Shown here: piece by piece, positions 7,653 to 47,397 of the stretch
How the letters are laid out: every line of letters starts with the position of its first letter
How positions within the stretch are numbered: the first letter of the stretch is position 1
NCBI GenBank assembly: GCA_950097015.1
Contig: CATNEN010000038.1
Coordinates: 8,122,001-8,186,000 of the forward strand
DNA length: 64,000 nucleotides
Direction of reading: 5' to 3'
From: Macrostomum hystrix
Lineage: Eukaryota; Animalia; Platyhelminthes
Notes under the pieces: model-generated
What the model saw: only the letters and a program-made list of their open reading frames with translations
The model's database searches: none
What the model was told of the DNA's origin: nothing
Made by a program: the position numbers and the translations under genes

Positions 7653-10600
7653 TCAGTCGTGGTAGGCTTCGATGCCGCCGTAGCCGCTCTTTTCCATGGG
7701 ATCCGAGGTGAGGAGCGGATCGATGCGCTTGTACCTGCCTCTGCGGAGCGGACAGACTGTGTTTAGCTGCTCATCAATAGCTAACAATAGAAACGCGTTC
7801 GTTTTACTTACCGAAAGTATCGCCTATGCACTGCACAGCCAGTCACAGCGACCGCCAGGGTCAGCAGCCCGCAGGCGACGCCAAGTGACACGACAAGACC
7901 GACGCCCCACTGCGAGCTGCCGTCGTCGCCGCTGCTGCTTGAGGAAGAGACGCCGCCAGCAGCCGCAGCCGCTGCCGCTGCTGCATGCTTTGAACCCGAG
8001 GCCTCCGCACTCACCGCAGCTGCCTCGCTCTTGACGGCGTTCCGATGCCGGCCGATCTTGAGCAGGGCCGCCAGTCGAGCACCCGACAGGCTGCGATGCC
8101 AGCCAACCGCCCTGAGAAAGTCTGCCGTTGTTGCATTCGGAGATTCGCAGAACGCCCAGTCGCCGCTCGGCCAGCTCACTGCGCCGATGGAAGCTTTCAG
8201 GCCGCACCAGAAGCCGCTGGTTCCGGTTGATACGGGAGAGGACGCAGCAACGGTCAGTGGCAGGCAGTTGTAGTGCAGACGTCCACCGTAGGCAAACGGA
8301 ATGCGACAATGGAATCGTTTGACGTCATGATCTGGAAAAGACAATTTAGGCATTTTAGGGAGGGGCGCTAATGTGTGAAAAGTCAGAACACTATCATTCA
8401 TGGTTTTTAATGCGCTAGCTGGCATAGTATTATTATCTAGCCTCATCAGCCATACAAGGAAATTATCAGTCTATCACTAGTATTAGGAGGCAAATTTCCA
8501 GCTGCAAATGATTGTGATTGCGCGGCTGGGAAAGAAGTTTTGGCGTGTTTTGGCGCACTGATAATTACGCCTCCGCAAGGCGACTATAAACGAATAGCTT
8601 TTCGAGAATACAGGCTGCGGCTCTTCGGCCCCTTGACAAGACGCAGGTCATCCGTGGAGACCTGATCACAGACGCTCAGCCCTATAAGAGATTCAGAAAG
8701 GAAGGAAAATAAATGGGTTCTGGAAAACATGCAATTTAGATTTTTGTGCTCTGGAGCTTATTTAACTTGGGCTCTTTTAGAATTAAAGAAACGAGTTGAA
8801 AAACAAGAAAAAATGCTAATTTTCTTATCTACGAGACTAAAACCGTGCTTCCTATGCAGCCCTATTCGTTGGGGGTACATGAGATGAGAATGAGCTAAGC
8901 AGCTTGAAGGTCAGTAGTTGGTCAGAGGGTTTTTGGAACGCGTGATTAAGAATTGACTTTGCGAATTGGATCAATGGCATTGATGCGCTGATATAGTTGT
9001 AAGAAAAGATGCGAAAGCACTCATATCAATGAATGACATTTGAGTGCACTCGAAACCTGCCGCTGCTACTATCGCATTTCAAAGACAGTACTGCCCAACG
9101 CTTGATAGATTTATAGAATGTGATAACAAAATAGCTAATCTAACAATGAAGGCGTCTAACCAAGAGACAGAGTCGAAATCGCTCAGCTCGGAAGTGAATC
9201 CCTTAATTAGGAGCTGATTTTCCCTTAAGGCGTACTACATCGGAAATCATTTAAGTTATTGTCTGCCTTTCGATTACATGCTGAGACCAAAGCGTTGGTC
9301 CTACTAACAGTAGCTGGAAAAATATTAAAATTAGAAAGTTTCCAACTTTTTTCTGCTTCTATTGACAGACTATGTTGTGACATGCTGGGCCCATTGTCAC
9401 AATTTTAGAATATTTCTGAAATTTTTTTACTTATTCAATGTGATAAAAAGAACGTAGTACACAACTAGGTGAAACTAAAAAACAAAAAAACTAAAAAAAG
9501 ATGAAAAACTCTTGTGCAGCTCTAAAATATTATTTAAAAAATTTTCTACAATAGAGATTTTCGAGAAACGGAACGACTTTTTTCGACCTCTGTGAAGAAA
9601 GCAGCCGAGATTCTCGGAAGCAAAAAAAGTTTTGTCTACATAACAATTTCGCTTCTTCAATATTTTTTCAGTGAGCTCCAACTGCAGTAACTTTCTGTCT
9701 GCTCTCGTAGAGTGCAGTAGTGCAACTTCCGACTCACTGTTGCATCGCATCCAGTTCTCGTCGCGTGTGAAATTAGCCGTTATCGAGCACCACTCCTCGC
9801 CTTTGAGATTGTACCTGACACAGGTGTGATGCCAGCGACCGTGCCACCAGAAGGGGAACACGCAGCGGCGATCACCAGGCACTGAAGGCAGAACCACGGG
9901 AGGCGGCGGCGGTGGCCGTGGTGTCGTTGGATGAGGAAGCTTTGTTGGGGCCATGGTTGCACCAGCGCCACCTGATTGTTGAATTATGGAAATACTTTCT
10001 TGGATATTTGTCAAGAAATTCTTCATTGTGTCTAGCAGCTATCCATTCTGTTGCTTGTATCAAGCAGCTATCCATTATGTTGATTGTAACTAGCAGCTAT
10101 CCATTCTGTTGCTTGTAACTAGCAGCTATCCATTCTGTTGATTGTAACTAGCAGCTATCCATTCTGTTGATTGTAACTAGCAGCTATCCATTCTGTTGAT
10201 TGTAACTAGCAGCTATCCATTCTGTTGCTTGTATCAAGCAGCTATCCATTCTGTTGATTGTATCAAGCAGCTATCCATTCTGTTGATTGTAACTAGCAGC
10301 TATCCATTCTGTTGCTTGTAACTAGCAGCTATCCATTCTGTTGATTGTAACTAGCAGCTATCCATTCTGTTGCTTGTATCAAGCAGCTATCCATTATGTT
10401 GATTGTAACTAGCAGCTATCCATTCTGTTGATTGTAACTAGCAGCTATCCATTCTGTTGATTGTATCAAGCAGCTATCCATTCTGTTGCTTGTAACTAGC
10501 AGCTATCCATTCTGTTGATTGTATCAAGCAGCTATCCATTCTGTTGCTTGTAACTAGCAGCTATCCATTCTGTTGATTGTATCAAGCAGCTATCCATTCT

Positions 10601-12362
10601 GTTGCTTGTAACTAGCAGCTATCCATTCTGTTGCTTGTATCAAGCAGCTATCCATTATGTTGATTGTAACTAGCAGCTATCCATTATGTTGATTGTAACT
10701 AGCAGCTATCCATTCTGTTGCTTGTAACTAGCAGCTATCCATTCTGTTGATTGTAACTAGCAGCTATCCATTCTGTTGATTGTAACTAGCAGCTATCCAT
10801 TCTGTTGATTGTAACTAGCAGCTATCCATTCTGTTGATTGTAACTAGCAGCTATCCATTCTGTTGATTGTATCAAGCAGCTATCCATTCTGTTGCTTGTA
10901 ACTAGCAGCTATCCATTCTGTTGATTGTAACTAGCAGCTATCCATTCTGTTGATTGTAACTAGCAGCTATCCATTCTGTTGATTGTAACTAGCAGCTATC
11001 CATTCTGTTGATTGTATCAAGCAGCTATCCATTCTGTTGATTGTAACTAGCAGCTATCCATTCTGTTGATTGTAACTAGCAGCTATCCATTCTGTTGATT
11101 GTATCAAGCAGCTATCCATTCTGTTGCTTGTAACTAGCAGCTATCCATTCTGTTGATTGTAACTAGCAGCTATCCATTCTGTTGATTGTAACTAGCAGCT
11201 ATCCATTCTGTTGATTGTAACTAGCAGCTATCCATTCTGTTGATTGTATCAAGCAGCTATCCATTCTGTTGATTGTAACTAGCAGCTATCCATTCTGTTG
11301 ATTGTAACTAGCAGCTATCCATTCTGTTGCTTGTAACTAGCAGCTATCCATTCTGTTGATTGTAACTAGCAGCTATCCATTCTGTTGATTGTAACTAGCA
11401 GCTATCCATTCTGTTGATTGTAACTAGCAGCTATCCATTCTGTTGATTGTAACTAGCAGCTATCCATTCTGTTGCTTGTAACTAGCAGCTATCCATTCTG
11501 TTGATTGTAACTAGCAGCTATCCATTCTGTTGATTGTAACTAGCAGCTATCCATTCTGTTGATTGTAACTAGCAGCTATCCATTCTGTTGATTGTAACTA
11601 GCAGCTATCCATTCTGTTGCTTGTATCAAGCAGCTATCCATTCTGTTGATTGTATCAAGCAGCTATCCATTCTGTTGATTGTAACTAGCAGCTATCCATT
11701 CTGTTGCTTGTAACTAGCAGCTATCCATTCTGTTGATTGTAACTAGCAGCTATCCATTCTGTTGATTGTAACTAGCAGCTATCCATTCTGTTGATTGTAA
11801 CTAGCAGCTATCCATTCTGTTGATTGTAACTAGCAGCTATCCATTCTGTTGATTGTAACTAGCAGCTATCCATTCTGTTGCTTGTAACTAGCAGCTATCC
11901 ATTCTGTTGATTGTAACTAGCAGCTATCCATTCTGTTGATTGTAACTAGCAGCTATCCATTCTGTTGCTTGTATCAAGCAGCTATCCATTCTGTTGACTG
12001 TAACTAGCAGCTATCCATTCTGTTGATTGTAACTAGCAGCTATCCATTCTGTTGATTGTAACTAGCAGCTATCCATTCTGTTGATTGTAACTAGCAGCTA
12101 TCCATTCTGTTGATTGTAACTAGCAGCTATCCATTCTGTTGCTTGTAACTAGCAGCTATCCATTCTGTTGATTGTAACTAGCAGCTATCCATTCTGTTGA
12201 TTGTATCAAGCAGCTATCCATTGTAACTAGCTGTCTAAAACTTTCCATTCTGACCGGTATTTGATCTAAGCTTGATAAAATTGTATTAGAAAACTCACCT
12301 AGGCACATCAATGTGATGTGCAAGCACATCTGAAAGCTTGCTAGACTCAGCAGCAGCCTCAT
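7653..12362 (-). CDS. Type-I membrane protein with two fibronectin type II (FN2) domains; exons 12362-12299, 9971-9738, 8331-7812, 7740-7653
   Basis: Signal MRLLLSLASFQMCLHITLMCL; FN2 #1 CVFPFWWHGRWHHTC...WCSITANFTRDENWMRC; FN2 #2 CRIPFAYGGRLHYNC...FWC...DWAFC; TM WGVGLVVSLGVACGLLTLAVAVTGCAV; tail RGRYKRIDPLLTSDPMEKSGYGGIEAYHD*. Phases 1,1,2 are consistent. Confidence 0.8.
10032..12221. repeat. 29-bp minisatellite (aactagcagctatccattctgttgattgt), ~75 units, filling intron 1 of the FN2 gene
   Basis: Directly visible tandem array with only a few variant positions. Confidence 0.97.
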
Positions 12363-13319
12363 CTTGAACGAAGGCATCGTTACACAGTCAACTGTTCCGG
12401 CAAACAACAAGACGTTGAAAGTAATAGGTTTTAATTCCTAGCTTGGTAAACGGTAAATATTAAGCTGCATGAGGCTCTGCCCAATCTCATGGTGCCAGTA
12501 AAACAAAAATCGATCGCGCAGCAGATCGAAACTAACTTTGATAGCCATTGATTACATTGCAGTGGACGCTGCTGTCGAATCCTCACTGCAGTGGAAAATT
12601 CCTGCACCTGACAGCTGTTGAGTGTCTCCCTGTCTCTTCTTCCCTTGGTTCCAGGCTAAACTGAAATTTTTCTGCTCAGAACTTGTCTCGAGCTAGTGGG
12701 TTGCGAGATTAATTCCCAATTTGGGATATTGAAAACAAAATACTGTGAATACAAAACAGTGTAGGAGCTGACAGCTAGATGTTGAATAGAAAAACGACTT
12801 CTTTTTTAATTCGATTAATTTTGGGGAATCGCATCATAAATATTCATCAGCCTCTAGTGGTATTTTATGAGGGTCATTTCATTATCAATATATATATTAG
12901 TTTCAACTCACGGAAACAATGCATTTGCCAGTTTAATTTCATTTCATTTAATCTCGCAGCTGATTTCTAATTTAACAAAGAACGGTTTGTATGCATCAAA
13001 TACGGCAGGTGACAATTCTTAGATTTTTAGTCTTCGAGTTTAGCAATATCGAAATAATATAACGGCTCAGTGGACATAAAATTTCGCAAGATTAAAGCAA
13101 ACATTTAATATTTCTTGGAAATCAATAACTGAGAAACTTCTCTTATCTAAACATTCGCTTTTTGTATATTTGTTTATCTATCTTACGATTGCAGTTGTTA
13201 CTATGCTTAAGCTTTCATTGATAGAATTAGAAAATTTAGATCGTAAAATTGGGAGAAGGGAAGTTCAGATCAGTATAATTGAAGCGATCAGCGATCGGTC
13301 GCACAGACTGGCCCAGTGT

Positions 13320-13805
13320 TCAGCCGTAGCCGGGACACACGCAGTCGCAGATACCTCTTGGCAGATTCAGATAACCCATGCAGCCAGCGGATGGGCCAAA
13401 GTACGACCGGCAGCGTTGGGTGCAGTAGGGCAGCGCGGTGTGGAAGTCTGAAATGTGATCGATAAGCCATAGAGATTTTCACAGCTTCAAACTATAACAA
13501 ACTCTGGCGGCCGAACTTCCTACCCCATGAATGTACACTAGCTGGCACTGACTCGATGTACATGAAGAGCCATGGGGTGGTGGGCGCTATTTATTGATCG
13601 GAAATGCTACCATTGAAATGAACTAACTAATGTCTACTACGATAACTTCAACTGTAAAACCCGTAACAGACGACCAAACTTAGTTTCTTGGCTCACAGAA
13701 TAGTCTCTTGCTGACTTTCACCGGCTCTTCGGCCACTGGCGTGGCCCCGATCGAATTCATGAAGCTAAAGCAAAGAATCTGGACTATGAGGCAATACAGA
13801 AGCAT
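13320..13805 (-). CDS. Secreted cysteine-rich prepropeptide, 99 aa (defensin/CS-alpha-beta-like); exons 13805-13697, 13586-13524, 13447-13320
   Basis: Two phase-1 GT-AG introns give a 300-nt ORF: MLLYCLIVQILCFSFMNSIGA-TPVAEEPVKVSKR-LFSPTTPWLFMYIESVPASVHSWDFHTALPYCTQRCRSYFGPSAGCMGYLNLPRGICDCVCPGYG*. Confidence 0.8.
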
Positions 13806-14344
13806 TTTTGGCTCCATTCTATACTAATGCTGCTGTTTGGTAGAAATGTGTAAAAGCTGTTTCTTTTATGGAAAATATGGTGGGCCGTGAGCGTCCGTGA
13901 TGAATTCAGTCGCAAATGGTCGACTTTTTATGGTCGACTTGCGATTCAGCTGAGCCAATAATAAGTCTACATTAAGCCTCCACGAGAGCCAATCATCGTG
14001 CGGTGATTTGTTAAATGGAAAGCGCATTATCAAGGTCATCTCCAGGATGGATGACAGCGTCAGTTTAAAATCCGTTTGCCATGTTGCTATGCCAAAAAGA
14101 GCAAATGTTTAGAATGTAAGGATAAACAACAAAGTAACGAGACTAGAATTTTAATTTGGACCACCTTCGACAATAGCGTACTGTACATGTGAATATCCGT
14201 CGAATGTCAAATACAGAAGATATTCTCGAACCATAGCAGTTTTGAAATGAGCAAAATCGAGATTGATCTAGAATTCTCAATCTAGACTGACACACTGACA
14301 TCTCCTTTATCATCCCTAACAGTGTACACTATATCACTGCCTTG

Positions 14345-14670
14345 AGGGTTATCGCGTTTGCCTTTCGCACAAAGGTTCCTGAGCTCGATTCCGCGGCGAG
14401 GCCACATTAATCTGGGGCGCAGCCGCGAAGAGAAGGCTTGGGGGCTTGTAGTGCAATTTACGCCATGGAGGGCCAACCTCCAAGGCACAGTGAAACGTGA
14501 CACTGTCTGACGAAGAGAAAGTCATGGCAGATGTACACATCTTTGTGTGTCTGCGTACAGTATCCGTGTGTATAAGTGCTCAGGAGTCAGTTAAATGGGC
14601 AGAATTGCCATCTCACTGGCTGCGGGTCCACTGTCACCAAAATGACGTGCCATTATTGGGCCTCTTGCAA
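14345..14670 (+). mobile_element. tRNA-derived SINE family B
   Basis: cgcgtttgcct...gagctcgattcc head and gtgctcaggagtcag...aaatgggcagaattgcc body are shared with copies at 19480 (-), 44505 (-) and 54100 (+). Confidence 0.75.
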
Positions 14671-15346
14671 AATAAAAAGTTTATTTTTAGGACCTCCGTC
14701 CGCTGCTGCGCCCCTCAAATGAAATTGACCTCGTCGCGAATTCGAGCTCAGGGACTCACTCAGGATTTGGCCAAATCTCAAGATGCTTTTCACCATGTTT
14801 AGCAGTCTTCTTTTAAAAAGAACTTCGCATTTGACATGAGCTTCTTAATCAGTGTATAGATAGAAGATTAGGAGAGAGTGCAAGTTGTTTTGCATTGGTG
14901 ACTGGCTTCGTAGTTACAGCACAGAGAGCCTGCACTTCGAAAATTTGATATAGAACGCATTTTACAAGTACTTTTGTCATCAAGCTATTTGAAGAGCACT
15001 TCAACTGATTCAAATTCAAAACAGCTGGAATCTATTATTGTGTCGAAACGTATGATATAGCAGCAGAACAATGCGAAGCTTCTGCACAGGACTTTTAAAC
15101 AATGTGATGCAGGACATATTTTTTGTTAATAAAAAAACAGTGGACTGTGTATCAATGCTGAAATACTAAAAACATCAACCAAAATAACTTTTGCCTAGAC
15201 ACTACAAAGCCAGCAAATATCGCATATAAATTATAAGCAAACGCTGTTGCCAAGTAGTACAAATCATCCGATCTTTGCCATGACAATGGCCAGTGACAAT
15301 TTTCATTAGGTTTTATGAGCGTTTCAAACCTTTAAAAACCTCATTA

Positions 15347-15650
15347 GGAGGTTGTAGCGTAGTGGTTAGAGCGTCGGACTCACGACTTGAAGGTCGGGGT
15401 TCGATTCAGCGACACAAATCGACATTGTGTCAATTAGTGTCGCTAAAAACTTTGCAACTCTGCATTGCTTCAGTTCACCAAGCTGTTACCAGCAGGGTAG
15501 CAGTATCAGCTGGGGTAATTGACGGTGGGTGTGGCCTCACCCAGTCCATGGACTGAACGGCCGTACGCAGCCTTCAGATGCGCCGCGCAATAGCTGCGAC
15601 TGTGCTGTCGGCTGCACATTTAACCCGATCACCCGAGGGCAGGTGTAATA
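15347..15650 (+). mobile_element. SINE family A copy
   Basis: ggaggttgtagcgtagtggttagagcgtcgg...ggttcgatt head and the ccagtccatggactgaac...gggcaggtgtaat 3' end match the other copies. Confidence 0.8.
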
Positions 15651-16164
15651 AATTACTATTTTTTTTTAATTTCAAACCAGTCCACTCATCCAATGCAATC
15701 GCGTGGTTATCGTCAGTCAAGCACAATGTCTGCCTGCGTCACATTTTTATCAGTAGCAACTCCTACACATACTACCGACTAATATTTTATTAAGCAGCTA
15801 CATATTTTTGTAAAACAGCAGAAAGAATCACGTTTCTCCCCCCTGTCGAAAGGTCACGGGGGATATTTCAAATTCCCACTGCCTACTTCTCGATAGCTCC
15901 CAAACCAAATGACCGATTTTAGTGAAAGTCCACCATCTGAATCAAATTTTTTCCGCACTTTAAGATGAACTAACTTTCAAAGCCGTACGAGCCAGCATCG
16001 TCGACATATTCAGCGATTCAGGTGAAAAGGACAAATATCATTAATTGCTCTGTTAAAACCCATTTGGCGAATCCATAACGGTTCACAAAGTTAATAAACT
16101 AACAGTATTATCAATATAGTCAACAATTTGCCGGCATGATTACTTGATAAAATTTTGCGACGAA

Positions 16165-16360
16165 ACACACTGACGAGAATCGTTGAATATCTTGACGATG
16201 CCGATGTTTTGTGATTCTGGAAGTTGTTTTATCGGATAGAGCGGAAAAATTAAGTTCGTGATCTATAGATTTTCATTGCGATTGGTTGAATATTTGAAGA
16301 GATGCAGGAAAAAATGAGGGTATTTTAAATACCTACCAATGGTCTTTCCACTGTTAAGAG
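16165..16360 (+). repeat. Dispersed non-coding repeat (copies at ~4925-5995, split by the solo LTR, and ~42820-43018)
   Basis: Shared blocks gacgagaatcgtt...gatgccgatgtttt...tagagcgg...gattttcat..cgattggtt...ggtcttt..actgtta. Confidence 0.6.
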
Positions 16361-16921
16361 AAAAACACGAGTATATTTATCTGTCAATTATTTAAATCGC
16401 ATGAGCATCTCAGAATGTGGGCTAAAATACGAGCCAAGCTCGAAAACAGAGAATTAATGATGATTATACGAGTAAATAGGAGGGCTGTTAAAATTGGCTG
16501 TAATTATAAACATTTTAAATCAACGACTGACTAATTAATCTGGTCGAATTTGAACACCCCTGGCTTCATAATATTTCTGCGCTTGAAAATGAAAAGTCCG
16601 ACAACTGGAACTCTTCATTATAAAACACGCATCATACACAAAGCTAAGAAGATAATTTAAATTCAAATGAACTCGGCATGCTCCGAGAAACACAAGCCTA
16701 TGCGAGGCTCTCATTAATACAGTATTTCTAATTTCTGAGCACTGATTTGGCCGGAAAGACAATCTTAGTGACATATATGGCCGAGCTATACTTGATATGT
16801 CATCGATCCAGCTGCCTCAACCAATCAGTGAGGCTGCTGAGCAATGCTGATAGCAATATTTAAGCCAAAATCATCAGCTCGAGCCTGGTTTTATTCGCGA
16901 CTACTGTAAAACATCTTGCCC

Positions 16922-19280
16922 ATGGAAGGGCTAATCACCATGACAACAGCGACTCCACAGCCAGCATTGCCGAGCTATAGCGGCGCATCTGACGAAATGA
17001 ATGAAGATAACATTAAGGCGACGATGAAGGAGCCTGATTTGGCAATGGCTAGACAGAATTGTCACCGCAGCCAGCTGAAAGTGTTGGTGCTGGGAGCTGC
17101 ATGGACCCTTCTAATCTCATCTGCTGTTGCGGCAATCACTGCCTCCTTCTTCACTGAAAGCATCGGTTGCCGAAATGCTTCGACTACAGCGACTGTGAAA
17201 GCAGATTCGGTTTCTGAAGCAGCTGCGGCCGATTCTAAAAAAGTCCTCAGTTGCTATCAGAACGAGCGAACCTGCGAGCTGTTTAATCGTGATGTCAGTC
17301 TGCAGTGGTCGGTTAATGGAGGCTTCGAAGTTCACACCAATACATTGCGTCGGGCTCAACGACAAGCCGCAGCGGCGCTAGTTGAAGCTCTGGCATCGCG
17401 GCCGACTTTCGCTGGCTCATCGGCATGGAAACGGGTCGCGTTCAACCTGACGCTTTCGTGTCTGCGGCACAGCCCGGCTAGAGATCTGTTCGGGGAGACT
17501 ACTGAGGCAGTGGAGCCGGCCCTGGCGCGCATGCTGGGACCTAGAAGCGGCTTGTTGAGCTCGAAGTCCACTAGGCTGGTGGCTGGCGAGTTACCAGAGA
17601 GGCTGCTAGGCTACCTGGCTGGGCTGGGCCTACCGGCGGGTGTCGAAATCGTGACCTATGCGGCGGTGGATCACATGACAGTGCCGCTGCGGTTGCAAGC
17701 TGCTGAGCTGTCCACAGATAAAATAGGCACCACGCCGGAGTAAGTGTGCTTCAATTTTTTCTTGCATTTGATATAAAAGTTTAAATACACAGAACCGAAT
17801 ACTTCCAAGTTGCATGCTTCACAACTTTTAGAGCCGAGAGCTACCGCTCGGCTGCGGTGCGGGCTTTCCTACGCGCTGGTCGAGGCCTGCCCGCAATTAT
17901 CGCTGACCGAATAGTGGCTCTGCGACTGAGCCTTGACCGGCTGCGAGAGCTGGACAGCGAAAATGGTGAGGCCAATGCGTCTACGTAGAGAATTAGAGAG
18001 GCTTGATAATGGTCGAAAGTAATTCGTAATAGGTCTCGCAGTAATTTAGCAGTAGAACTGCTAAAATCCATGGCATTTTCATATTTCTGTCGCAACCTTC
18101 CTCGCCTAGCGCAGGTGTCAGGGAGCTCGCAACTTTGTCTGATCTAGCCCACACATTTCCCAGTGGGCAGCGCGGCTGGAATGCCTTTCAGCTCGATCAA
18201 CTGCCAGCAGCAGGCCTGCCTAAGACCGAAGACGCCGCAGTCAGGGTGGACGGCAGATTCGGTTTTGTAAGCGTGCGCGGCAAGTTAGAAGTGATGCGTC
18301 AGCGCCTTCAGCTGCTGGCATCTCAGGATCAGGACACACTGGTCGGCCTGGCCTTCGTGGAGGGTGCAGCGCGACTTAGAAGATTCTTGGTCGGCTGCAG
18401 CGATGGTGGACAGTTGACACACAGCGAATCCTGCGCTCGAGCCGTCCTGCTGACGATGCCAGTCGCCTCGCGGAAAGCATTCTTTGATGACCGGTGGGAG
18501 GTGTTCAAATGGATCAACTTGACAGCAAGGACTGATCCGACCATAAAAGCTATTCACAATGAGGACACAGAGCTTCATTTAGCCGGACTGTACGATGGAC
18601 TAAGCCTGAGCAGTGACGCCAGCTTCTTGGACAACCTGATGAAAACTCTGACGCACACAAGGGCGGTTCTGACAGCCACGGCAGCTCGCGGAGGCACAAA
18701 AGACCGACAGGCGCTTGAACTGTTTGGCGAGACGGCTCTTTCAAAGTCCTTCGCCGTCAGGGATGCGGAGAGCTATCAGCTTCCTATGTACTTTTATGCG
18801 CAGTTTCTGGATTCGCCGACTCAGGTGGCAACACTGCTGGCTTATAAGATGCTGAACAGCGAGCTTCATTCTAACAGACTACAGATGCACTCAGATACCT
18901 GCCGCACAGCTAGCGCTGATAAGATCCATGACGCCGCACTCAAAGCTGTCAGCGCAAGAGCAGCTCGTCAAGCATTGAAGCTGAGCTCCTCAGAAATGCA
19001 AGCCTTTTGCCTGGAATCCAACGCCCTGTGGTGCCAGAAATCAGCAACGCAGAGCGATGAATCGCCATGGTCCAACGAAGCCAGGGCGCAGCGTTTTCTG
19101 ACGCTGAGTCTGCTGCCCGAGTGCCAGCTGAGCCACCACTGCTTGCGACTGGCTCCTGAGCCGGAGTGGCGTTGCGCTGCGCAACTATTTGAGCAGCTCA
19201 GCAACAGCTCATCTTTGCGAGGGATTCAGAAGAGACTCAGTGAAATCGATTGGAAAAGCATTACAGATTTGCTCACTTAG
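16922..19280 (+). CDS. Type-II membrane neprilysin (M13)-like protein lacking HExxH; exons 16922-17739, 17832-17965, 18115-19280
   Basis: N-terminal TM anchor; M13-like segments KKVLSC..RTCELF....LQW, KRVAFNLTLSCL, EMQAFCLESNALWC, ESPWSNEARAQ and C-terminal Cys pair; splice phases 2 and 1 are consistent. Confidence 0.65.
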
Positions 19281-19479
19281 TTAAAAGGCCAGAAAATGTT
19301 TGACTTCAGAACAAATCACGTACAAAAAATTAATACTGCGGTACGCGTCTCTCGTTAATATGGCTTGAAGGTCACTTTTTGATGAAATAAGCTATACTAG
19401 CTCTTAGATTAGTCATTAGGCTGCCGTCAAATCTCTGCCTTCCCACTCATTTAACTCTAGAGCGGATTGCCTAATATGG

Positions 19480-19760
19480 TGAGACCTATTTGGTGAGACT
19501 AGACCCGGAGGCAATTCTGCCCATTTCGCTGACTCATGAGGACACACACACACACAGATAACGTACACAGGCACACGCTCAAACAGGTGTGTACATCTGC
19601 CCTGACTTTTTCATCGCGCCTTGGAGAATGGCCCTCAATGGCATAAATTGCACAAGCCCGCAAGCCTTCTCTCCGCGGCTGCGCCCCAAAAAATGTGATC
19701 ACGGAATCGAGCTCAGGGACCTTGGTGCGAAAGGCAAACGAGTTAGACCGAAGGCTACAT
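19480..19760 (-). mobile_element. SINE family B copy
   Basis: Reverse complement of the 14345 element (ggcaattctgcccattt, gaatcgagctcaggg, aaggcaaacg). Confidence 0.75.
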
Positions 19761-20110
19761 GTATGGTATAGAGATTACAATGGTAAAACCTTTAAGACAA
19801 ACATTTTCTTGAATGAGTTCAAATCAAACGAAGCTTAATTAAAGGTAAGCTTAAGTTTTCCTCTGTATTTCTGTTTAATAAGTTTCTACTCTTGAATTAC
19901 AGAACAATTAGGAAACATGGATGGGAAAGAGACGGCGAAATCAGGACGATAAAACAAATGGCCATTTGCATAAGAATTCGGTTTAATTATGATTATTCGC
20001 TAAGCATCAGTTCAAAGCAGAAACAATAAATCATAACAACCTAGCAACCTACCCATATAAGAAAAAAAGTTTTCTAAGAACACCCGTTTATAAGGAAAAT
20101 GTAAAACAAT

Positions 20111-23100
20111 TCAAAGCTTGGACTTTCGCGCGAAGAATTTGGCCACAGCGTTGAAGCAGTCCTCGGAGATCCAGCGCTCCTGCAGCCGGTTGCACTCGCG
20201 CACATTGGCCGCGTGCAACTCGGCTCTGATTGGCTCGCGCAGCAGCTGCTTGGCGTAGAGCAGCGTCTGAAAAATAGAAAATTCATTATAGCTTACTTGC
20301 AGTAGACCACGACTGACTTTTAATGCTTAAATAAGCATTTAAATCGAGTCCCACCCACCTGCTTGGGCAGGGCGGCGATCTCATCAACAGCGGCGCCAGC
20401 GTCGGCAGCGAAGGAGCTGTGGGGGAAGACTCGGCTGACCAGGCCGCAGGCCAGAGCCTCCTGGGCCGTGATTTTCTTGTTGAACATAATCAACGAAGCG
20501 GCGGCTGGCAGGCCCATAATGCGTGGGAAGGTGTAGGACGAGCAGCCCTCCGGGGTCTGGCCTAGCGATGAAAATGGCATATGGAAGGTGGCCGCGTCCG
20601 ATGCGAACACCTGCGGGCCGGGATTGTGATGCACTTTAGCTATGCACTTCAGCTGTTTTGCTTTCTCGGCTCCGCGGTGGCAACCGGTTTCCAACTTTTC
20701 TGGCTCTCTAAGATTGATTTATCACTCAGCCTCAAACCACCATCTCTAACCCCAAGCGATGATTGGCTGAAGATCCGTTCTGCCTCTATCTCTCACTCAG
20801 GCACTAGCCCACGCCCTCTAACCCCAAGCGCTGATTGGCTGAAGATCCGTTCTGCCTCTATCTCTCACTCAGGCACTAGCCCACCCCCTCCAACCCCAAG
20901 CGCTGATTGGCTGAAGATCCGTTCTGTCTCTATCTCTCACTCAGCCACTAGCCCACCCCATCCAGTATCAGTGATGACACAAAACAAAGAAATGACGCAC
21001 ATCGTAGGGCATACCCGACAGGCCACATCACAGATATGACACTCCAAAAATATACATCTGACCAGAATATTTCGAAATATGACACAAAAAAGTTTTGCAA
21101 AGAAACTGTAAATTTTGCATTACAAGCTACTACTAGAAGAAATGTGAAAATAATTCGGTCGCAGCTCCAAAGGGTTTTAAATAAATCGTATTCGACACAA
21201 GTCCAGCTATTTCAGTCATATATATATATATTATTATTATTATTTACTTTATTTTAAAATTTTAGAATTATATTTCACGTGCATACGAATTTTAGTTATA
21301 ATTAATAAGTTTCAAATAATATATTATATTTACATGCTTCACATGTTAGAAAATAGTTTTAATAGCATGTTGAAATAGTGCAAAAGCGCAGAAAATGTGC
21401 AACAGAGAAAAAACCGCGCAGCACAGGTGTTGGCACCGCTGCTATGCACTAAATTGAGCTTGCCTCTTCTGCTTTGGATCACCCTGCTAGAACTGTCTAG
21501 TAGATCTGGCTAGAACTAGTAGATCAGCGCCACCCTACTAGAACTGTCTTCCTATAATCACCCTGCTAGAACTGTCTTCCTATAATCACCCTGCTAGAAC
21601 TGTCTTCCTATAATCACCCTGCTAGAACTGTCTTCCTATAATCACCCTGCTAGAACTGTCTTCCTATAATCACCCTGCTAGAACTGTCTTCCTATAATCA
21701 CCCTGCTAGAACTGTCTTCCTATAATCACCCTGCTAGAACTGTCTTCCTATAATCACCCTGCTAGAACTGTCTTCCTATAATCACCCTGCTAGAACTGTC
21801 TTCCTATAATCACCCTGCTAGAACTGTCTTCCTATAATCACCCTGCTAGAACTGTCTTCCTATAATCACCCTGCTAGAACTGTCTTCCTATAGTCACCCT
21901 CTTTGAATCGATCTAGAATCTGCTGCGTTCGTTTTTTGGCCTAATCAATCAAGAAAGTTACACAGAGTACAGAAATCTGTCAATACGGTTTTCAGCACTC
22001 ATTTTTGCAGCAGCTGCCATTCGCTCGAAGGCTTTTCTCAGCTTTTGTGATGCGCCTCGTGGTGCTGCCATTGAATTTTCCACGAACCGCCACTGGTGCA
22101 ACCACGCACTTGACGGTCAGCGCCAGCGACGCCAGAGGAGCCCGCAGCCGACTCCGCGGGTAGATCAGAGCCAGCGACGCCAGAGGAGCCCGCAGCCGAC
22201 TCCGCGGGCAGATCAGCGCCAGCGTCGTCAGAGGAGCCCGCAGCCGACTCCGCGGGCAGATCAGCGCCAGCGACGCCAGAGGAGCCCGCAGCCGACTCCG
22301 CGGGTAGATCAGAGCCAGCGACGCCAGAGGAGCCCGCAGCCGACTCCGCGGGCAGATCAGCGCCAGCGACGTCAGAGGAGCCCGCAGCCGACTTCGCGGG
22401 CAGATCAGCGCCAGCGACGTCAGAGGAGCCCGCAGCCGACTCCGCGAGCAGATCAGCGCCAGCGACGCACTCCTTCGGTGTGGTTTTGATGATCTGCCAT
22501 CAAGCGCTGATCTTCCGCCGTGGCGTTTTCCAGGCCCATCGTTTCCAGCCACTCGCGGAATTTAGAAACAGTGACATTGTGCAGCAGCGGTGAGTACCGT
22601 TTTCTATACTGGTAAAATAGGCGGTCGAATGAGCCGTACGGGAATACAAACGCCTGAGCGTTATCGCTCAGGCTCTCCTCAAATCGTTGCGCCAGGACCT
22701 GCATCACCAGGTCTGCGCACGGTGTTACACTTGCCCACGCTGAGCCGTGGCCCTCAATAGACTTGTGCTCTTTAACTTTAAGAGGCTCATTCGGCGACTT
22801 CAGCCACCGGCGTGCGTCCGAAATTTTGCAGGCGGAGGCCACGCCCTGCCGGTTGGCGTTTCCATCGATGAAACAAATGCATATCCCGATGGCCAGGAAT
22901 GTCACCGTCCTGTGTCAATGTTGAGGCCAAGACTTTTTAATCTCATGATTAAGTGCCATTTCAAAGATTATAAGAACTCACCAGTCTTTTGTGCGCCTAG
23001 CCTCCTCCAGTACGGTGGTCTTCATGTCGAAGACGGCCTTAATTTGGTCGCCGGTCAGGAGCTCTTCTTCTTTCTGGTCCATCAGGTCCGCGTAATATTT

Positions 23101-26100
23101 TGCCTTGGCACCCATGGAACTAGCAGTCCAATTTTTTGTCGCCTGCCTGTACGATGTTAGGTGCTGCAGCAGCCCATCATCAATCACTTGTTGATAGCGT
23201 CGGGTGACCATCATAAAGTTGCCGACTTTTTCCAGCGCAGAGACGCTCTGCTTGAGCATCGAGTATGAAAGGTTATCCAAATACGCGCTGATTCGGTCGC
23301 GCTGGTCTTCGATGACCAGTGAGTTAAATGAGTTGATGTCAAGTGAGCGCATCAGCCGCTTCAGGTAGCACCGAATTTCGCGTACCGTTGCCGGCTTCTT
23401 GCGCCCACCGAGAGAGCTGGCCAAGAACGCACAGAGTGCCTCAACGTCGTCTGTCGACGGGTGCCACGGCTGGTCTAGCCGGCACTCTGCTTCTGGCCTC
23501 AGCCAGCTTCTGCTCCTTTGCAGCTCTTGCTGCGTCTGGGTGGCTGTTGCGTGTGTGGCTCGCCAGCAAATTTCTGTCGTTGCGCCACTCGCCGCAGATG
23601 ACGCACTGTACCGCCTTCTCTGCCATTGGGCCGGCAGTCGGCTGATGCGTGTTGAGCTTCACAGAAGCACGCAGAATCTGGAGGGCTCTTTTGTGTAGAA
23701 AAAATGCAGGAACCCCATCCGGGACTCTTTGATTGGCATGCAGTCACAGAATAGGCAAATGTACTCCTGCCCGGCACGCGACTTGGGCTGCTGAGCTGCG
23801 GCGAGCGGCTGCTGAGCTGGTAGAGTACAGGTAGACTGCCCTGTATGGTAGAGACAGGGCAGTATGGTAGAGACAGGGCAGTATGGTAGAGACAAGGCAG
23901 TATGTTAGAGACAGGGCAGTATGGTAGAGACAGGGCAGTATGGTAGAGACAGGGCAGTATGTTAGAGACAGGGCAGTATGGTAGAGACAGGGCAGTATGT
24001 TAGAGACAGGGCAGTATGGTAGAGACAGGGCAGTATGGTAGAGACAGGGCAGTATGGTAGAGACAGGGCAGTATGGTAGAGACAGGGCAGTATGTTAGAG
24101 ACAGGGCAGTATGGTAGAGACAGGGCAGTATGGTAGAGACAGGGCAGTATGGTAGAGACAGGGCAGTTATTAGTAAAAATATGCTCTTCACTTTCACTTA
24201 CCATTAACTGGAATCGATCAGACGCGTCGAGCTCTTTCTCAAACGACTTTTGCCACTTAGCGACGTCATAGCATTTGCCTTTGCGGCTTATCAGCTGTTT
24301 TATGAACTCCAATTGTTTGGAAATTTGAATTAATTTATTGAAAAAAAAAGAAATTAATTGAGAATAAGAAATCTGGCTTTTGAAAGGCCAGCTGAAGTCC
24401 CATTTTATATGAGGTGGCAGTTTGACATCAACAATGTCAACATCTGCGCCGCCATTAACACCGCAGCGGAAAGCACGCTGCCACTCGTGCGACTCCCGCA
24501 GCGCTCGCAACCAGTGTGGATGAGCGACCCAGCAATCAGAGAGGCCAAAGAGCGATTGCAACGACTAAGGAGGAGCAGGCGCGCTACAGACGAGGCAGAA
24601 AATGCTCTTGCCACTGTCTACAAAGAGCAGCAGCTGGCTGCGGTGGGCGAGGCCATCCGTGCTGTCACATCCGCCGCCCTGGACAGGAAGAGCGGCACAG
24701 TCTGGAATGCCCAAGTAGCCGGGCACAAACAAGATCGAAGAACACCGAGGCATCTCCTTAATGTCCTGCGCCGCCAAGCTGTATAACAAGTTGCTACTGA
24801 TGCGCTTGCAGCCTGTGCTGGACCCGTAACTGCGGCATGAGCAGAATGGGTTCCGGCCACGACGCGGCACTGCCACACAAATTCTGGCGCTCCGGAGAAT
24901 CATCGAGGAATCGCGTATTCGCCAGTTGGACCTTTTCTGTCTGTTTGTTGACTTCCTGAAAGCTTTCGACTCAGTGGCTCGAGGCGCGATATCACTGGTT
25001 CTCCGAGCCTACAATATACCAGAAAAGCTGATCGCAGCAGTGATGGCGCTCTATTAAGACACGCTCGCCGCTGTGGTCACACCTGACGGCCTGTCTGACC
25101 CATTCACAACATCATCTGGAGTCCTGCAGGGAGACAACCTCGCTCCTTTCCTGTTCATCCTCATCCTGGACTGGGTGCTGCGGATAGGTCTACCGGACAA
25201 CTCAGACGGCTACATCCTATGCAGGCGAACAAGCAGCCGGCACCCAGAGAAGCGACTGGCAGTCCTAGGCTACGCCGACGACATGGCCCTGTTAGCCTCC
25301 ACCGCTGAAGGTGCCCAACGCCTGCGTGACGGCCTCGCTGCTGCCGCTGCAAGGGTTGGCCTCAAAACCAACGCCAAGAAGACGGAGGTCCTCACTGTGC
25401 CTGCTGACCTGCCAGCTGACACCCGTCTTCCCAGCATGGACAGCTCGACGGCAACATCCCTACCCAGGTGTGAGCAGTTCCGGTATCTTGGCGGTCTTGT
25501 GCCCAGTGTCCAAGAGGATTTGCGACGTCGCAGAGGGCTCGCCTGGGCGGCTTTCCGCTCGGCAGACTGTGCGGCCAGACGTGTTTTTTGACAATGCCCC
25601 CCTTTTCAGGCCACTTGTGGTCGGTGAACATTGTACTTATTGTATTGTATTGTATTGACATCAACAAGTAATGTTCACTCTAATTTTCATTGGCTCGGAA
25701 TGGGGTGGTTAAAATATTTCACGTTCATGGAACGTGTCAAATCCATTATGCTTTTAGACTCAAAGGGGTGGACTGTCTCATTTCAGTAGTGACTCATTTT
25801 GGCACCAATTTACTTTGATTCAAAATGAAACATGCGCATCAACGAGTATGAAACATAGATTAGGTACAATGTGCCTCACTCACATTCACAGCCTCATTCA
25901 CTGCGTCATTTGCATTCGCAGCCTCATTCACTGCCTCATTCACAGCCAGTTAGTTCTGCATTTTCAATTCATTGAGTAGCCCTGTGAGATCCACTGCTGT
26001 CAATATACAGTGAACAGTGAATAACAAAGATATGACACACAATGGGAGGGATATACTGTTATTAAAAATGACACAGACATGCTGCAAATCTTAAGCGCTG

Positions 26101-34500: not shown

Positions 34501-37500
34501 TATTTCTCTGGTGTCCTTGAAAGTGCTAAAAGAAATAAATGTTGTTTTTGGTGACAAGTGTGTAAAACACTTGTGAAACATAGTATAAAACACTATGTAT
34601 TTATGTATTTTAGGTATAGTTACTATATTACAGGTTCTTTTTGTAGAAAAAATAATTTCTTAGTATTTTATTAGTCTAATTCTCTTTTCTTTGCATTAAT
34701 TTCTGTTAGCCGGCGACTGGCTGCAGGGACCCTATGTGTACGCGCTGTACGAGCACTATAACCTGTCCAAGCGGGACATCGAGTTCCTCTTTGTTGCCGG
34801 CTTCGGCGCCAGCATGCTGTTTGGCACAGTTGTCGGCTCCTTCGCCGACAAGTTTGGTCGGCGTCGCAATTGCATAATCTATGGCATCATCTACGGCCTG
34901 TCCTGCCTGACCAAGCACTCCAGCAATTTCTGGGTGCTGCTGCTGGGCCGTCTGCTCGGCGGCACTGCCACGAGCATCCTGTGGAGCGGTTTCGAGACCT
35001 GGCTAATCCACGAACATCACAGCCGCGGCTACAGCGACCGCCTGCTAGAGGAGATCCTGAGCTGGGCCACCATCGGCAATAGCATCGTGGCCATCACCTG
35101 CGGCATTGTAGCCCAGTACGCTGTGGACGCATTCGGCTATGTTGCTCCATTCGACCTGGCCCTGCTAATCCTGGCCGTCATGACCGCCATTGTGTGGTAC
35201 AAATGGCCAGAGAACTACGGCGACGCCGGCGCCGACGTCAAAAAGAGCTTCGTGGACGCCTGGAAGACTGTCCGCACGGATCGTCGTGTCCTGGGCCTGG
35301 GCATTGTGCAGTCTCTGTTCGAGGGCAGCATGTACTGCTTTGTGCTCGAGTGGACACCAGCTCTGACACCCACTGCTCCTGGTTTGTGCTCATGCTCAGC
35401 TGCCTTAATTGAATTTTGCCTTCACCAGATCCTCAATCTAGACTGTCGAATTCTCCACCAGATCCTCAATCTAGACTGTCGAATTCTCCACCGGATCCTC
35501 AATCTAGACTGTCACATTACCCACCAGATCCTCAACCTAGACTGTCACATTCCCCACCAGATCCTCAATTTAGACTGTCACATTCCCCACCGGATCCTCA
35601 ACCTAGACTGCCACATCCTGAAATCCCAAACTCTCTTAGCAAAGTGCATAATTAGCTTCCATTATAACCCTCCCCCAGCCAAGCTGAGCAGCGGTCACGC
35701 CGGCAAGATTCCCCACGGCTACATTTTTGCCGCCTACATGGTGAGCCTGATGATTGGCGGCCAGCTATTCTCATTCTGCTGCAACCGGGCCCGCCCCGAG
35801 TCCTTCATGCGCTGGGTGTTCGGCGTGAGCTCCTTGTGCCTGATGCAGCCCGCTCTGCTGCGCAGCGACTCGCTCATTCCCGTCACCTTCATCGGCTTTC
35901 TGGTGTTCGAGTGCTGCGTTGGATTGTTTTGGCCCGCCATCGGAACCATGCGCAGCAAATACGTGCCAGATTCCAGTGAGACTTCTATTCCCGTTCAAGA
36001 TTAGTCTGTGAATGCCCATTGGTTGGTCTGTGAATATCTTCTGTCTCTGATGGGTCTGTGAATGCCTTCTGATGGGTCTGTGAATGCCTTCTGATTCGTC
36101 TGTGAATGCCTCGTGATTCGTCTGTGAATGCCTGTTGATTGGTCTGTGAATGTCTTTTGATTGGTCTGTGAATGTCTTTTGATTGGTCTGTGAATGTCTC
36201 TTGATTGGTCTGTGAATGTCTTCTGATTGGTCTGTGAATACCCATTGATTTGTCTGTGAATGTCTTTTGATTGGTCTGTGAATGTCTGTTGATTGGTCTG
36301 TGAATACCCATTGATTTGTCTGTGAATGCCTATCGATTGATCTGAAAAATGATTTGTTTTTAGTCTGAATATGGTCTAGATAAATCGAGCGAGTTTACAG
36401 TCTTTTGTTTTCATGGAATTGCAGTTCGCGCTACCATCATGAACCTGTTCCGCATCCCGCTGAACCTGGTTGTGGTGATTATCCTGACTCAGAACTTTCC
36501 TATTGTGTTCATCTTCAAGTGCTGCGTCCTGTTCCTCGTGATCTGCAGCGCCATCCAGTTCTATTTGGAGCGGTGAGTTGCGGAATAATTATTTTCGTCA
36601 TTCTCTACCTATCTTGTTAGTCTCTGGTTAGCTGCTATCAACTAGAATTAAGCTAAGCCGAATGAAGTACAATGCAGTGTTTTTGCTAAATCATGATTTA
36701 AATAGTTCAGTCTAATGAGAAATTAATGGAACTATTTACAATGACAATTCAGCTGTGCTCAAACTAAACTCACGGCTTCCGCCCAATTGCCTAGGGGCGG
36801 CCCCACCCCCTCCCCGAGGAACTTAGTGAGGAAGAGCAAGTAAATGTGACAGCTGTGCAATGGCTGAGCTGGGGCAGTAATCCTGTACCAAATCCAACCG
36901 ACTTGAGCATTGCTTGCGCGTGTTAGTTGATCCCGCACACTGGCTTACCCGAATCCATGATTTCCTGATCACCGATGCCCGCACACTGGCTTACCCGAAT
37001 CCATGATTTCCTGATCACCGATGCCCGCACACTGGCTTACCCGAATCCATGATTTCCTGATCACCGATGCCCGCACACTGGCTTACCCTAATCCATGATT
37101 TCCTGATCACCGATGCCCGCACACTGGCTTACCCAAATCCATGATTTCCTGATCACCGATGCCCGCACACTGGCTTACCCTAATCCATGATTTCCTGATG
37201 ACCGATGCCCGCACACTGGCTTACCCAAATCCATGATTTCCTGATGACCGATGCCCGCACACTGGCTTACCCGAATCCATGATTTCCTGATCACCGATGC
37301 CCGCACACTGGCTTACCCGAATCCATGATTTCCTGATCAGCGATGCCCTCACACTGGCTTACCCGAATCCATGATTTCCTGATCAGCGATGCCCTCACAC
37401 TGGCTTACCCGAATCCATGATTTCCTGATCACCGATGCCCGCACACTGGCTTACCCGAATCCATGATTTCCTGATCACCGATGCCCGCACACTGGCTTAC

Positions 37501-40388: not shown

Positions 40389-40514
40389 ATTATCTGTTAT
40401 CGATAATTCGATAGTTTTTATAAGAAATTATTTACCTACTCTCCACCCATTTCAGTTTTTTCTAGTCTCGCAGTAGAGCAAGTCCGCTTGCCTCGCTACA
40501 AATTGAAGGTTGTC

Positions 40515-42086
40515 ATGCAGGTTTCGGGGAAACGCATTTGCGACAGAGCCTATGACGATACACTCGATGCTGTTGTCAGCTCTGTGCCGCAGAGCACGGT
40601 GTCGTTAATTGTGAAGGAGAACTGCTTCTACTACCCGATGGGCAGCACACTGGACTGCTCGGAGGATAATCGCTACGAGTTCAAGGGCTATTTCGCTCTC
40701 ACCTGGGGAGACATCATCAGAGGTAATCAGCAAACAACGGTGAATAACCTGCCGCACAGTCGAGACTTGCCTCGCAACATTTTGACCCCGGACTTCACCG
40801 GCAAGAAGCCAATTAGCCGCTCCCTGTGCGCGATGGCCAACTCGCCCGATGGCGGCGTCGTACTCTGCGGCGTGACGGACGCCGGCCGGGTCGGCGGCCT
40901 GCCTTTCTCCGTTCAGGAAAAGGAGCACATCATGCTGGCAGTAGGAGACCTCTTTTCCAGGTTTAGTCCGCCAATCGGAGTAGACCGCTATCGAGTCAAC
41001 TTTGTACCAGTGCTAAAGCCCAATGAAATCGACGAATACATTCAATGCCAAGCTAGTGGCGCTGGATCGGATGCGTTTGCAGAATTTTCTCCTGATTCTT
41101 TGCCATACTTGGCGTCTCGGGACACTGCTGAATACCTTTCAGGAGGCTCAGACTGCTCCTCCAACTTGCCGACTGTGGAAGGCCAGGCTTCTGATTCAAC
41201 ATTATCACCAACCAGCCTGAATTTTTCCAATGTAATGGATACAAATTTACTGCTAACGGAAAAAGAAAATTCTAAATGTTCCGATTCGCAGTCTAATTGT
41301 ATGCCAACTAAGCTTCTGCTCAATGATGAAGCTGATGGCTCGCTTGCCTGCATGCAGCCACTACCCAAGTTTGACAACGAATTGCTGAATCAGCGCCTAC
41401 TGCTTACTGCTGACGATGGCGAGCCAGACTTGCCTGTGGAATCAGGGGAAGAGGTGTCGAGGCTGCTGACGGTCGATGACGGCTCGGGCCCGAAAGTTCA
41501 CATCGGCGACGCCGTTCGCGACTCGCCTTCTTGCGAGTCCGGATCTTCGTCCACTTCTTCATCCTCCTCTTCCGACTTGCCAAATAACGGCGGCCCTCTG
41601 AAGCATAACTTGTGTTGTTATCTGAACTGCTGGTGCCTTCAACAGCGGTTGGATAGGTTCACAGAGGGGATAGCAACTAGGCGCTACGTATTGCGCATTG
41701 AGATGCTGCCGCAGGCCTATTGCCGCATTAGTTTTACTCGGTCTGCCCTTTCTAGCGGAGGTACCAGTGCCGCGGATGACACCGAGGCAGATAGGCATGA
41801 CGAGGTCGACACTGAAGACGATGACGCATCGGATTGCACTATCGGGGAGGAGGACGAGTTCTTGGCTAGCGAGCCGCTGGCTCTTAGCATGCCGGTGTTT
41901 GTAGAAGACGAGGAAAAAGAGTGCCGAGTGCGCAGCCTGGGCGCCAACCGCTGCCTGTCCCTGCTGCAGGCACAGCAGCTGGCCGAGTCTCGCGCCATGG
42001 CCGCACTCGACGACGAGCTGGTTGAGGTCAGACGGAATTTAAAGGAGCTGCGCCTGCTGCGAGACCAGCTGATTGATAGTATCTGA
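40515..42086 (+). CDS. Schlafen AlbA_2-domain protein (invertebrate SLFN-like) with C-terminal coiled coil
   Basis: Motifs SEDNRYEFKG, SLCAMANSPDGGVVLCGVTDAGRVGG, YRVNFVPV, YVLRIEM, DEEKECRVR; single long exon after polypyrimidine/AG acceptors. Start codon is uncertain. Confidence 0.8.
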   Translation: MQVSGKRICDRAYDDTLDAVVSSVPQSTVSLIVKENCFYYPMGSTLDCSEDNRYEFKGYFALTWGDIIRGNQQTTVNNLPHSRDLPRNILTPDFTGKKPISRSLCAMANSPDGGVVLCGVTDAGRVGGLPFSVQEKEHIMLAVGDLFSRFSPPIGVDRYRVNFVPVLKPNEIDEYIQCQASGAGSDAFAEFSPDSLPYLASRDTAEYLSGGSDCSSNLPTVEGQASDSTLSPTSLNFSNVMDTNLLLTEKENSKCSDSQSNCMPTKLLLNDEADGSLACMQPLPKFDNELLNQRLLLTADDGEPDLPVESGEEVSRLLTVDDGSGPKVHIGDAVRDSPSCESGSSSTSSSSSSDLPNNGGPLKHNLCCYLNCWCLQQRLDRFTEGIATRRYVLRIEMLPQAYCRISFTRSALSSGGTSAADDTEADRHDEVDTEDDDASDCTIGEEDEFLASEPLALSMPVFVEDEEKECRVRSLGANRCLSLLQAQQLAESRAMAALDDELVEVRRNLKELRLLRDQLIDSI

Positions 42087-46943: not shown

Positions 46944-47397
46944 ATTGTGATTTGTTATATTGTTGTGATTTTAATAGCAATAAGAAACTTTTTCTTATGG
47001 GTGATAATTAAAAGGCTATTTGATTTTCCCTCATTAAAATTGTTGGTATTGGTTATCTTGCGTGTACTCTACTCTGCTATGTCCCAATGTCAGTACACAA
47101 TTACTATTACTATTACTATTATTACTATTTATTTTTATTCTCATTATCGGTAAAGATGTCTCTTTATCATAGCTCTTATATTCCACTAGCCTGCAGTCTC
47201 TTAGCTTTCGTCCTTTAATTTTTTCCTGCTCAAACACTGGCGATAATTAAGTTTAGTCTAAAAACTGTCTCTCGATTTCTGTACATGTATAACTGCGTCA
47301 CAGAAGTTATTTTAAGCAAAATGAGTATTATTTAAAAAAACTGGCGGGTTTTTCTTACATTTCTTTCATTTCTTTCGTCTCTCTTTTAGTGGAGAAA

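Follow-up and report, generated by a model that had tools for sequence, protein, structure and literature searches.

The window, meaning the whole 64-kb stretch of DNA that was analysed, carries on its minus strand a small gene of two exons. Its features, in the direction of transcription, are the following.

13925..13932, minus strand: TATA-like element CATAAAAA, ~40 nt upstream of the 5'-most point reached by contigs (sequence scan; function inferred)
13697..13886, minus strand: exon 1, comprising the 5' UTR, signal, propiece, two mature codons and one base of the phase-1 codon (contig coverage)
13743..13817, minus strand: predicted signal peptide Met1-Ala25, with a second in-frame ATG at 13805 (hydropathy; same site predicted in the relative Mlig034330)
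13704..13742, minus strand: 13-aa propiece ending Lys-Arg, a predicted convertase site (KR invariant in all three gene groups)
13448..13696, minus strand: single 249-nt phase-1 GT..AG intron, which holds an exon proposed earlier at 13586-13524 (contigs, all four crossing runs of study P2)
13320..13447, minus strand: coding part of exon 2, with most of the mature peptide, all six Cys, the terminal Gly and the stop (sequence, alignment)
within 13320..13447, minus strand: six Cys codons, starting at 13424, 13412, 13382, 13349, 13343 and 13337
13130..13319, minus strand: 3' UTR according to contigs, which end at 13156-13130; variant hexamers at 13178, 13170 and 13109 (contigs, sequence scan)

Five public runs (X1-X5) matched the gene stretch. 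Contigs from X2, X3, X5 and X4 span 13156 (13130 in X4) to 13447 and 13697 to ~13886 with zero mismatches, and they join 13697 straight to 13447. Every contig crossing this joint belongs to study P2, so the junction is supported by a single study whose runs carry no RNA label on record. A neighbouring intron (20266-20359) provided an RNA control: it lies in a spliced enoyl-CoA hydratase/isomerase gene (19809-20718, minus strand) and was likewise skipped in all three P2 runs compared, as expected for spliced RNA. Contigs from X1 (study P1) cover 13153-13412 only, with two differences, and stop short of the junction. This run differs from the window by ~1-2% both there and at 19865-20107, which implies that a close relative or another strain also has the 3' part of the gene. 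A sequence scan found no AATAAA in the 3' UTR region.

The first, sequence-only reading of this locus had drawn three exons of exactly 99 codons, joined at 13697/13586 and 13524/13447. The GT and AG sites exist and the frame is open for 99 codons plus a stop, but the contigs skip the middle exon in all four runs that cross the intron, and no joint at 13586 or 13524 is listed for X2-X5. Rare isoforms can go missing from contigs, yet the insert is seen in no relative and its acceptor is weak (purine-rich AAATAAATAG versus CACATTTCAG at the acceptor in use). Moreover, the proposed exon is one of seven different frame-keeping AG..GT cassettes that a sequence scan can draw within the 249-nt intron. 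We consider it highly improbable that the 99-aa form is either the predominant isoform or one of importance. The two-exon junction codon encodes Tyr and keeps the frame, giving a precursor of 82 aa from the ATG at 13817. This ATG is in frame and within the transcribed part, four codons upstream of the start chosen earlier (13805, which would give 78 aa), with no ATG between.

A tandem array with a 29-bp unit (10025-12222; 75.8 copies, 95% matches) lies ~0.9 kb downstream of the gene, and smaller arrays occupy 20737-20959 (72 bp) and 21531-21900 (28 bp). Short multi-copy elements with many contig matches lie at ~14347-14440, 15350-15620, 16170-16250 and 19500-19780; loose ends that include a tRNA box-B-like GTTCGATTCC suggest that they are SINEs. 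An ARAGORN scan of the whole window detected no tRNA, and 12300-20600 gave no Rfam match. On the plus strand are two ORFs of 277 and 411 aa without a Pfam match, possibly parts of one gene or element (16910-17743 and 18045-19280), a reverse-transcriptase piece (25058-25591), an MFS_5 transporter piece (34700-36004), and a CAP/SCP piece (54371-55075). A 559-aa ORF on the same strand (40407-42086) has a Schlafen AlbA_2 domain (E 2.6e-7) and is possibly an innate-immunity gene, and an unbroken ORF of 1048 codons (47293-50439) has a signal-like start and an EGF domain with no other family. A Fibronectin type II piece lies on the minus strand at 9475-10038.

The encoded precursor has the layout of a secreted peptide. 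As noted at first reading, its N-terminus is hydrophobic (Kyte-Doolittle 9-residue mean, peak 2.8) and is followed by a propiece ending in KR. Signal cleavage is predicted after Ala25, and Mlig034330 has a predicted cut at the same Ala|Thr-Pro site (PMC10414684, S5). Removal of the middle exon shortens the mature region from the 65 aa first proposed to 44 aa, and the long aromatic Cys-free arm once assigned to its N-terminus turns out to be intron sequence. The six Cys are spaced 3-9-10-1-1, as originally described; the window contains this pattern a single time, and none of 100 block-shuffled windows contains it. The mature peptide begins only 10 residues ahead of Cys1 and ends four residues after Cys6. 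The distance from KR to Cys1 would be 31 residues in the three-exon form, as compared with 10 in the two-exon form and 10-12 in relatives. The mature peptide contains three Arg, one Asp, zero Lys, and eight aromatics among its 44 residues, for a side-chain charge of +2; the net charge of the relatives is +3.

We scanned 1.84 billion representatives with HMMER using the second-exon peptide, which gave three matches at E ≤ 0.001. Two are gene groups of Macrostomum lignano, each comprising near-identical copies: Mlig034330 (P0004; PAA82953.1 and copies; E 1.3e-10, 62% identity; 61-63% over the aligned exon) and Mlig020375 (P0006; PAA68142.1 and copies; E 5.3e-5, 51% identity; 46% over the aligned exon). 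The third, a moth repeat protein (P0005), is a spurious repeat artefact. Since one of the three matches is spurious, the P0006 match at 5e-5 rests on its alignment. That alignment has 15 invariant columns, among them the six Cys and a Gly-Tyr, and all five full-length related proteins share the signal, propiece and KR layout as well as the Cys spacing. Mlig034330 has exactly the layout of the two-exon form, with 10 residues separating KR from Cys1 and a mature length of 44. UniRef automatically names both groups 'invertebrate defensins family profile domain-containing'.

Further searches did not enlarge the family. A five-sequence profile recovered only the two known M. lignano clusters among 36 candidates, and a word-index search with the exon peptide returned no candidate of 23-74 or 75-2000 aa. 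Neither tblastn, blastn nor the Cys pattern located a paralog within the window, none of 97 pattern matches in metagenome contigs was confirmed, and sequence searches of the PDB gave chance-level matches only. Pfam defensin families (Defensin_2 etc.) had no match at E ≤ 10 to the exon peptide or any relative, and weak Pfam matches to a zinc ribbon, YacG and Sha_B_N were below cut-off. Two other candidates were set aside: P0014, which is unrelated, and P0013 (UniRef A0A1I8I6D2), a probably chimeric 400-aa 'Apple domain' model that embeds most of Mlig020375. The only relatives detected by sequence are the two M. lignano gene groups, which suggests that the window comes from a Macrostomum-type flatworm. 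The window gene may be a further paralog alongside these two or, if it belongs to a sister species, the counterpart of Mlig034330 by orthology. In agreement with the description of the gene as unannotated, these searches did not find it as an annotated protein record.

Splicing, reading frame, and conservation of KR and the six Cys across three gene groups are direct observations. Conservation does not extend to the C-terminal Gly, to which the first reading had assigned the role of amidation donor. The residue is present in the window gene, where amidation is possible judging from the sequence, but in the five related proteins the last residue is Pro or Asn. Since none of them ends in Gly, amidation is not a family trait and would be confined to the window gene's peptide among the members compared.

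To examine the fold, we ran AF2 in single-sequence mode on the 41-residue direct translation of exon 2. The resulting model (pLDDT 84.2) has a short strand, a helix at 6-16, and strands at 23-27 and 32-36. The model of the divergent relative, from a three-row alignment, is less confident (pLDDT 75.6; helix 4-21, strands 28-32 and 37-41) and has an identical helix-hairpin register. Foldseek produced no match at E ≤ 0.001 for the exon-2 model (best E 2.1), but VIA-align against 48,161 chains placed CS-alpha-beta peptides foremost: 18 chains had Z ≥ 2 and 15 of these are CS-alpha-beta peptides, a class that we presume for three of them and take from titles for the remainder. Termicin was the best match (Z 3.2, rmsd 3.5, 36 aligned). 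Among 211 chains picked by Foldseek, all 11 rows with Z ≥ 2 are scorpion toxins or plectasin variants. The relative's model matched termicin (Z 3.6, rmsd 3.0, 36 aligned), ASABF, the plant defensin AtD90 and Sm2a as its top four of 79, although unrelated alpha/beta proteins reach Z 3.2 with it. No PAN chain, mollusc defensin or mytilin appeared among the matches listed (50 of 79 for the relative), which excludes no reading. Atlas feature scores of 0.80-0.81, usable as leads only, pointed to scorpion short toxins for the exon (0.81) and to arthropod defensins for the relative. Low structural scores are expected for so short a chain; the models agree with the motif but fall short of proving a fold in which a helix carrying CxxxC is predicted to pack on a two-stranded hairpin, as in defensins.

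The CxxxC and CxC signature pointed out earlier is indeed present, in the product of an expressed gene that is most likely defensin-like. In the numbering of Tarr 2016 (PMC5116183), C3, C4, C8 and C9 form the cystine-stabilised helix and a C2-C6 bond completes the fold. The models put CxxxC on predicted helix 6-16 and CxC on predicted strand 32-36, corresponding to the core of the array. What the first reading overlooked is that the canonical C2-C6 bond is absent. No Cys lies ahead of CxxxC in the mature peptide, and in the window gene and all aligned relatives the residue after the invariant Gly-Tyr is Leu or Val (GYL/GYV for GYC), at a place where MGD-1 and Cg-Def have C-x(1-2)-G-Y-C (PMC10414684). 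Because the C2-C6 test failed, we file the family as a CS-alpha-beta-like variant and not as a canonical member. The original proposal was partly confirmed: the gene is real and the class largely right, although the exon model was wrong.

We derived disulfide pairing from strand register, not from model coordinates. In the predicted hairpin, Cys3 faces Cys6 and an invariant Gly faces Cys5. When the model is aligned with a plectasin analogue (residues 1..36 on chain residues 7..40), the alignment ends match Cys4 to Cys37 and Cys5 to Cys39, provided that the final residues are gapless. In plectasin these two pair with the helix Cys, and the third bond is Cys4-Cys30 (PMC11875557). Together, the hairpin register and this alignment make C3-C8, C4-C9 and C5-C10 the likely bond set, and a mytilin-type alignment yields the same three pairs. 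Cys1-Cys4 and Cys2-Cys5 would then form the cystine-stabilised helix and Cys3-Cys6 would close the base of the hairpin, so that the mollusc-type extra bond is likely kept and the canonical third bond lost. This set is absent from the patterns in the parts of Tarr 2016 compared, and Figure S1 of that work may hold it.

We favour, with modest confidence, a role in host defence: the 82-aa two-exon precursor would be cut at KR to give a 44-aa, three-disulfide, defensin-type peptide serving a Macrostomum-type flatworm. The precursor would be imported into the ER and oxidatively folded, a convertase would cut after KR to liberate the 44-aa peptide, the terminal Gly might optionally be turned into an amide in this member only, and the product would be released to mucus or gut. 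Its action may then depend on binding to a particular target in the microbial envelope, in the manner of plectasin and lipid II, instead of on membrane lysis by charge alone; weak charge together with many aromatics makes target binding the better fit. Every step of this scheme beyond splicing is predicted or inferred. AMP predictors accepted Mlig034330 at 54.5% (PMC10414684, S5). We counted low net charge, low structural scores and the missing Pfam defensin match against a defence role.

The same gene and fold could serve other ends, since sequence cannot tell a toxin from an antimicrobial within the CS-alpha-beta superfamily (Tarr 2016, PMC5116183). A ligand that targets ion channels or receptors of animals or protists, delivered in rhabdite or pharyngeal secretions for feeding or defence, would suit the scorpion toxins that fill the exon's Atlas list and many of the fold rows, the possible amidation, and the repeated recruitment of the scaffold to venoms (PMC5116183; structure titles). 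We nevertheless regard this as improbable, given that the peptide is without KCXN, Lys, the C1-C10 bond, and the long C-terminal extension of long-chain toxins, that the likeness scores are chance-like, and that the amide donor is not conserved. A part in reproduction or signalling, whether as a seminal-fluid or cocoon peptide or as a ligand like LURE and SP11, is unlikely. Its appeal lies in a small, secreted, lineage-restricted and fast-diverging family with low charge, and in the presence of plant defensin-fold SP11 and LURE among the fold rows. KR processing and amidation are typical of signalling peptides, and the former is at hand here along with a possible amide. Against such a part, the invariant Gly-Tyr is retained at the defensin site, and the supplements of PMC5730564 and PMC7806878 hold no expression data on the relatives, which other supplements may contain.

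More remote is the idea that the peptide forms a PAN/Apple-like core by itself, bonded Cys1-Cys4 and Cys2-Cys3, so that its defensin likeness would be convergent. This possibility was raised by the automatic name 'Apple domain-containing' on the 400-aa model containing Mlig020375, and by the Cx3C...C-x-G-Y...G-x-C spacing of the window peptide, which we take to be PAN-like. We think it very unlikely: Pfam gave no PAN match at E ≤ 10, 10 residues before Cys1 and four after Cys6 are too short for a PAN domain, and the pairing would give the last two Cys, both invariant, no good partner.

A defensin-type peptide in this lineage would bear on a published absence. Irvine et al. 2023 concluded that flatworms encode no CS-alpha-beta peptides, called this surprising, and included Macrostomum lignano within their species list (PMC10414684). 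Two Mlig034330 copies are in fact present in their supplement S5 as fAMP-LP 149, an unclassified candidate that the 'same genome' filter removed. The four Schistosoma ESTs reported by Tarr are described as unconfirmed in genomes (PMC10414684). Neither the window gene's motifs nor Mlig020375 were found in the seven supplementary files of that paper, one of them covered in part. The Mlig034330 and Mlig020375 identifiers are absent from the main text of the literature searched and from the supplements of PMC5730564 and PMC7806878, although other supplements may hold data. Databases already hint at the family through the UniRef names, which tempers the novelty first claimed for it; in the literature searched we found no published description.

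If the fold holds, the family fills the gap left by PMC10414684 and undercuts its claim that flatworms are without CS-alpha-beta peptides. Under the same condition, the miss would be explained by the lost C2-C6 pair, which defeats standard profiles. We tentatively advance a wider proposal, somewhat more open to doubt than the defence role itself: the family may consist of flatworm antimicrobial peptides that have the defensin fold, with C3-C8, C4-C9 and C5-C10 bonds and without C2-C6, and may stand as a natural intermediate that links the defensins of molluscs to the mytilins, and free-living flatworms may have kept a CS-alpha-beta immunity missed by homology searches. The family offers a small natural test of disulfide swapping on the defensin scaffold. 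It also supplies named effector candidates for an animal in which RNAi and transgenesis are available and whose microbiome has been described (PMC10024726); by word search, that paper's main text does not mention antimicrobial peptides. Were the wider proposal true, control of the microbiome by antimicrobial peptides would be testable in a transgenic flatworm.

Compared with known peptides, the window family shares parts of its array with several groups. Scorpion short- and long-chain toxins share the CS-alpha-beta scaffold and a weak Atlas and fold likeness, but the features that the window peptide is missing include KCXN in the gamma-core, the mark of K-channel toxins, since its mature form is without Lys; the C1-C10 bond and long tail are missing as well. 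Macins have eight to ten Cys with a C1-C7 bond, whereas the window peptide has six and none N-terminal to CxxxC. Within the family, the C-terminus is Gly in the window gene and Pro or Asn in Mlig034330 and Mlig020375. Six-Cys insect and fungal defensins (sapecin, termicin, plectasin, eurocin) share three disulfides and the predicted helix-hairpin, and they supply the best structural matches. They too have a prepro layout with a basic cleavage site. Their third bond runs from an N-loop Cys to the GXC Cys, both of which the window family is without.

The closest parallels in Cys arrangement are with molluscs and nematodes. The eight-Cys mollusc defensins and myticins (MGD-1, Cg-Def, myticin A) and nematode ABFs share CxxxC, the Cys before the Gly-Tyr strand, CxC, and a further C-terminal Cys (array C3, C4, C5, C8, C9 and C10). 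The proposed Cys3-Cys6 bond would be the counterpart of their C5-C10. They differ in having eight Cys, array positions C2 to C6 and C8 to C10, as opposed to six without array C2 and C6, and in separating the last two Cys by two residues instead of one. Mytilin B shares CxCxC after Arg-Gly-x, as well as a Cys 10-11 residues upstream that is followed by Gly-Tyr, and the earlier statement that CxCxC matches no familiar defensin or macin spacing was too strong. As in the mytilin type, a CxCxC stretch lies close to the C-terminus of the window family and its first Cys completes a GXC, whose Gly, two positions ahead of Cys4, is invariant. Mytilin B differs in its three helix Cys (CxxxCxxxC), a total of eight Cys and a C-terminal propeptide, whereas the window family has two helix Cys, six in all and an N-terminal propiece; its third mytilin helix-Cys position is an invariant Phe, and its stop comes four residues after Cys6.
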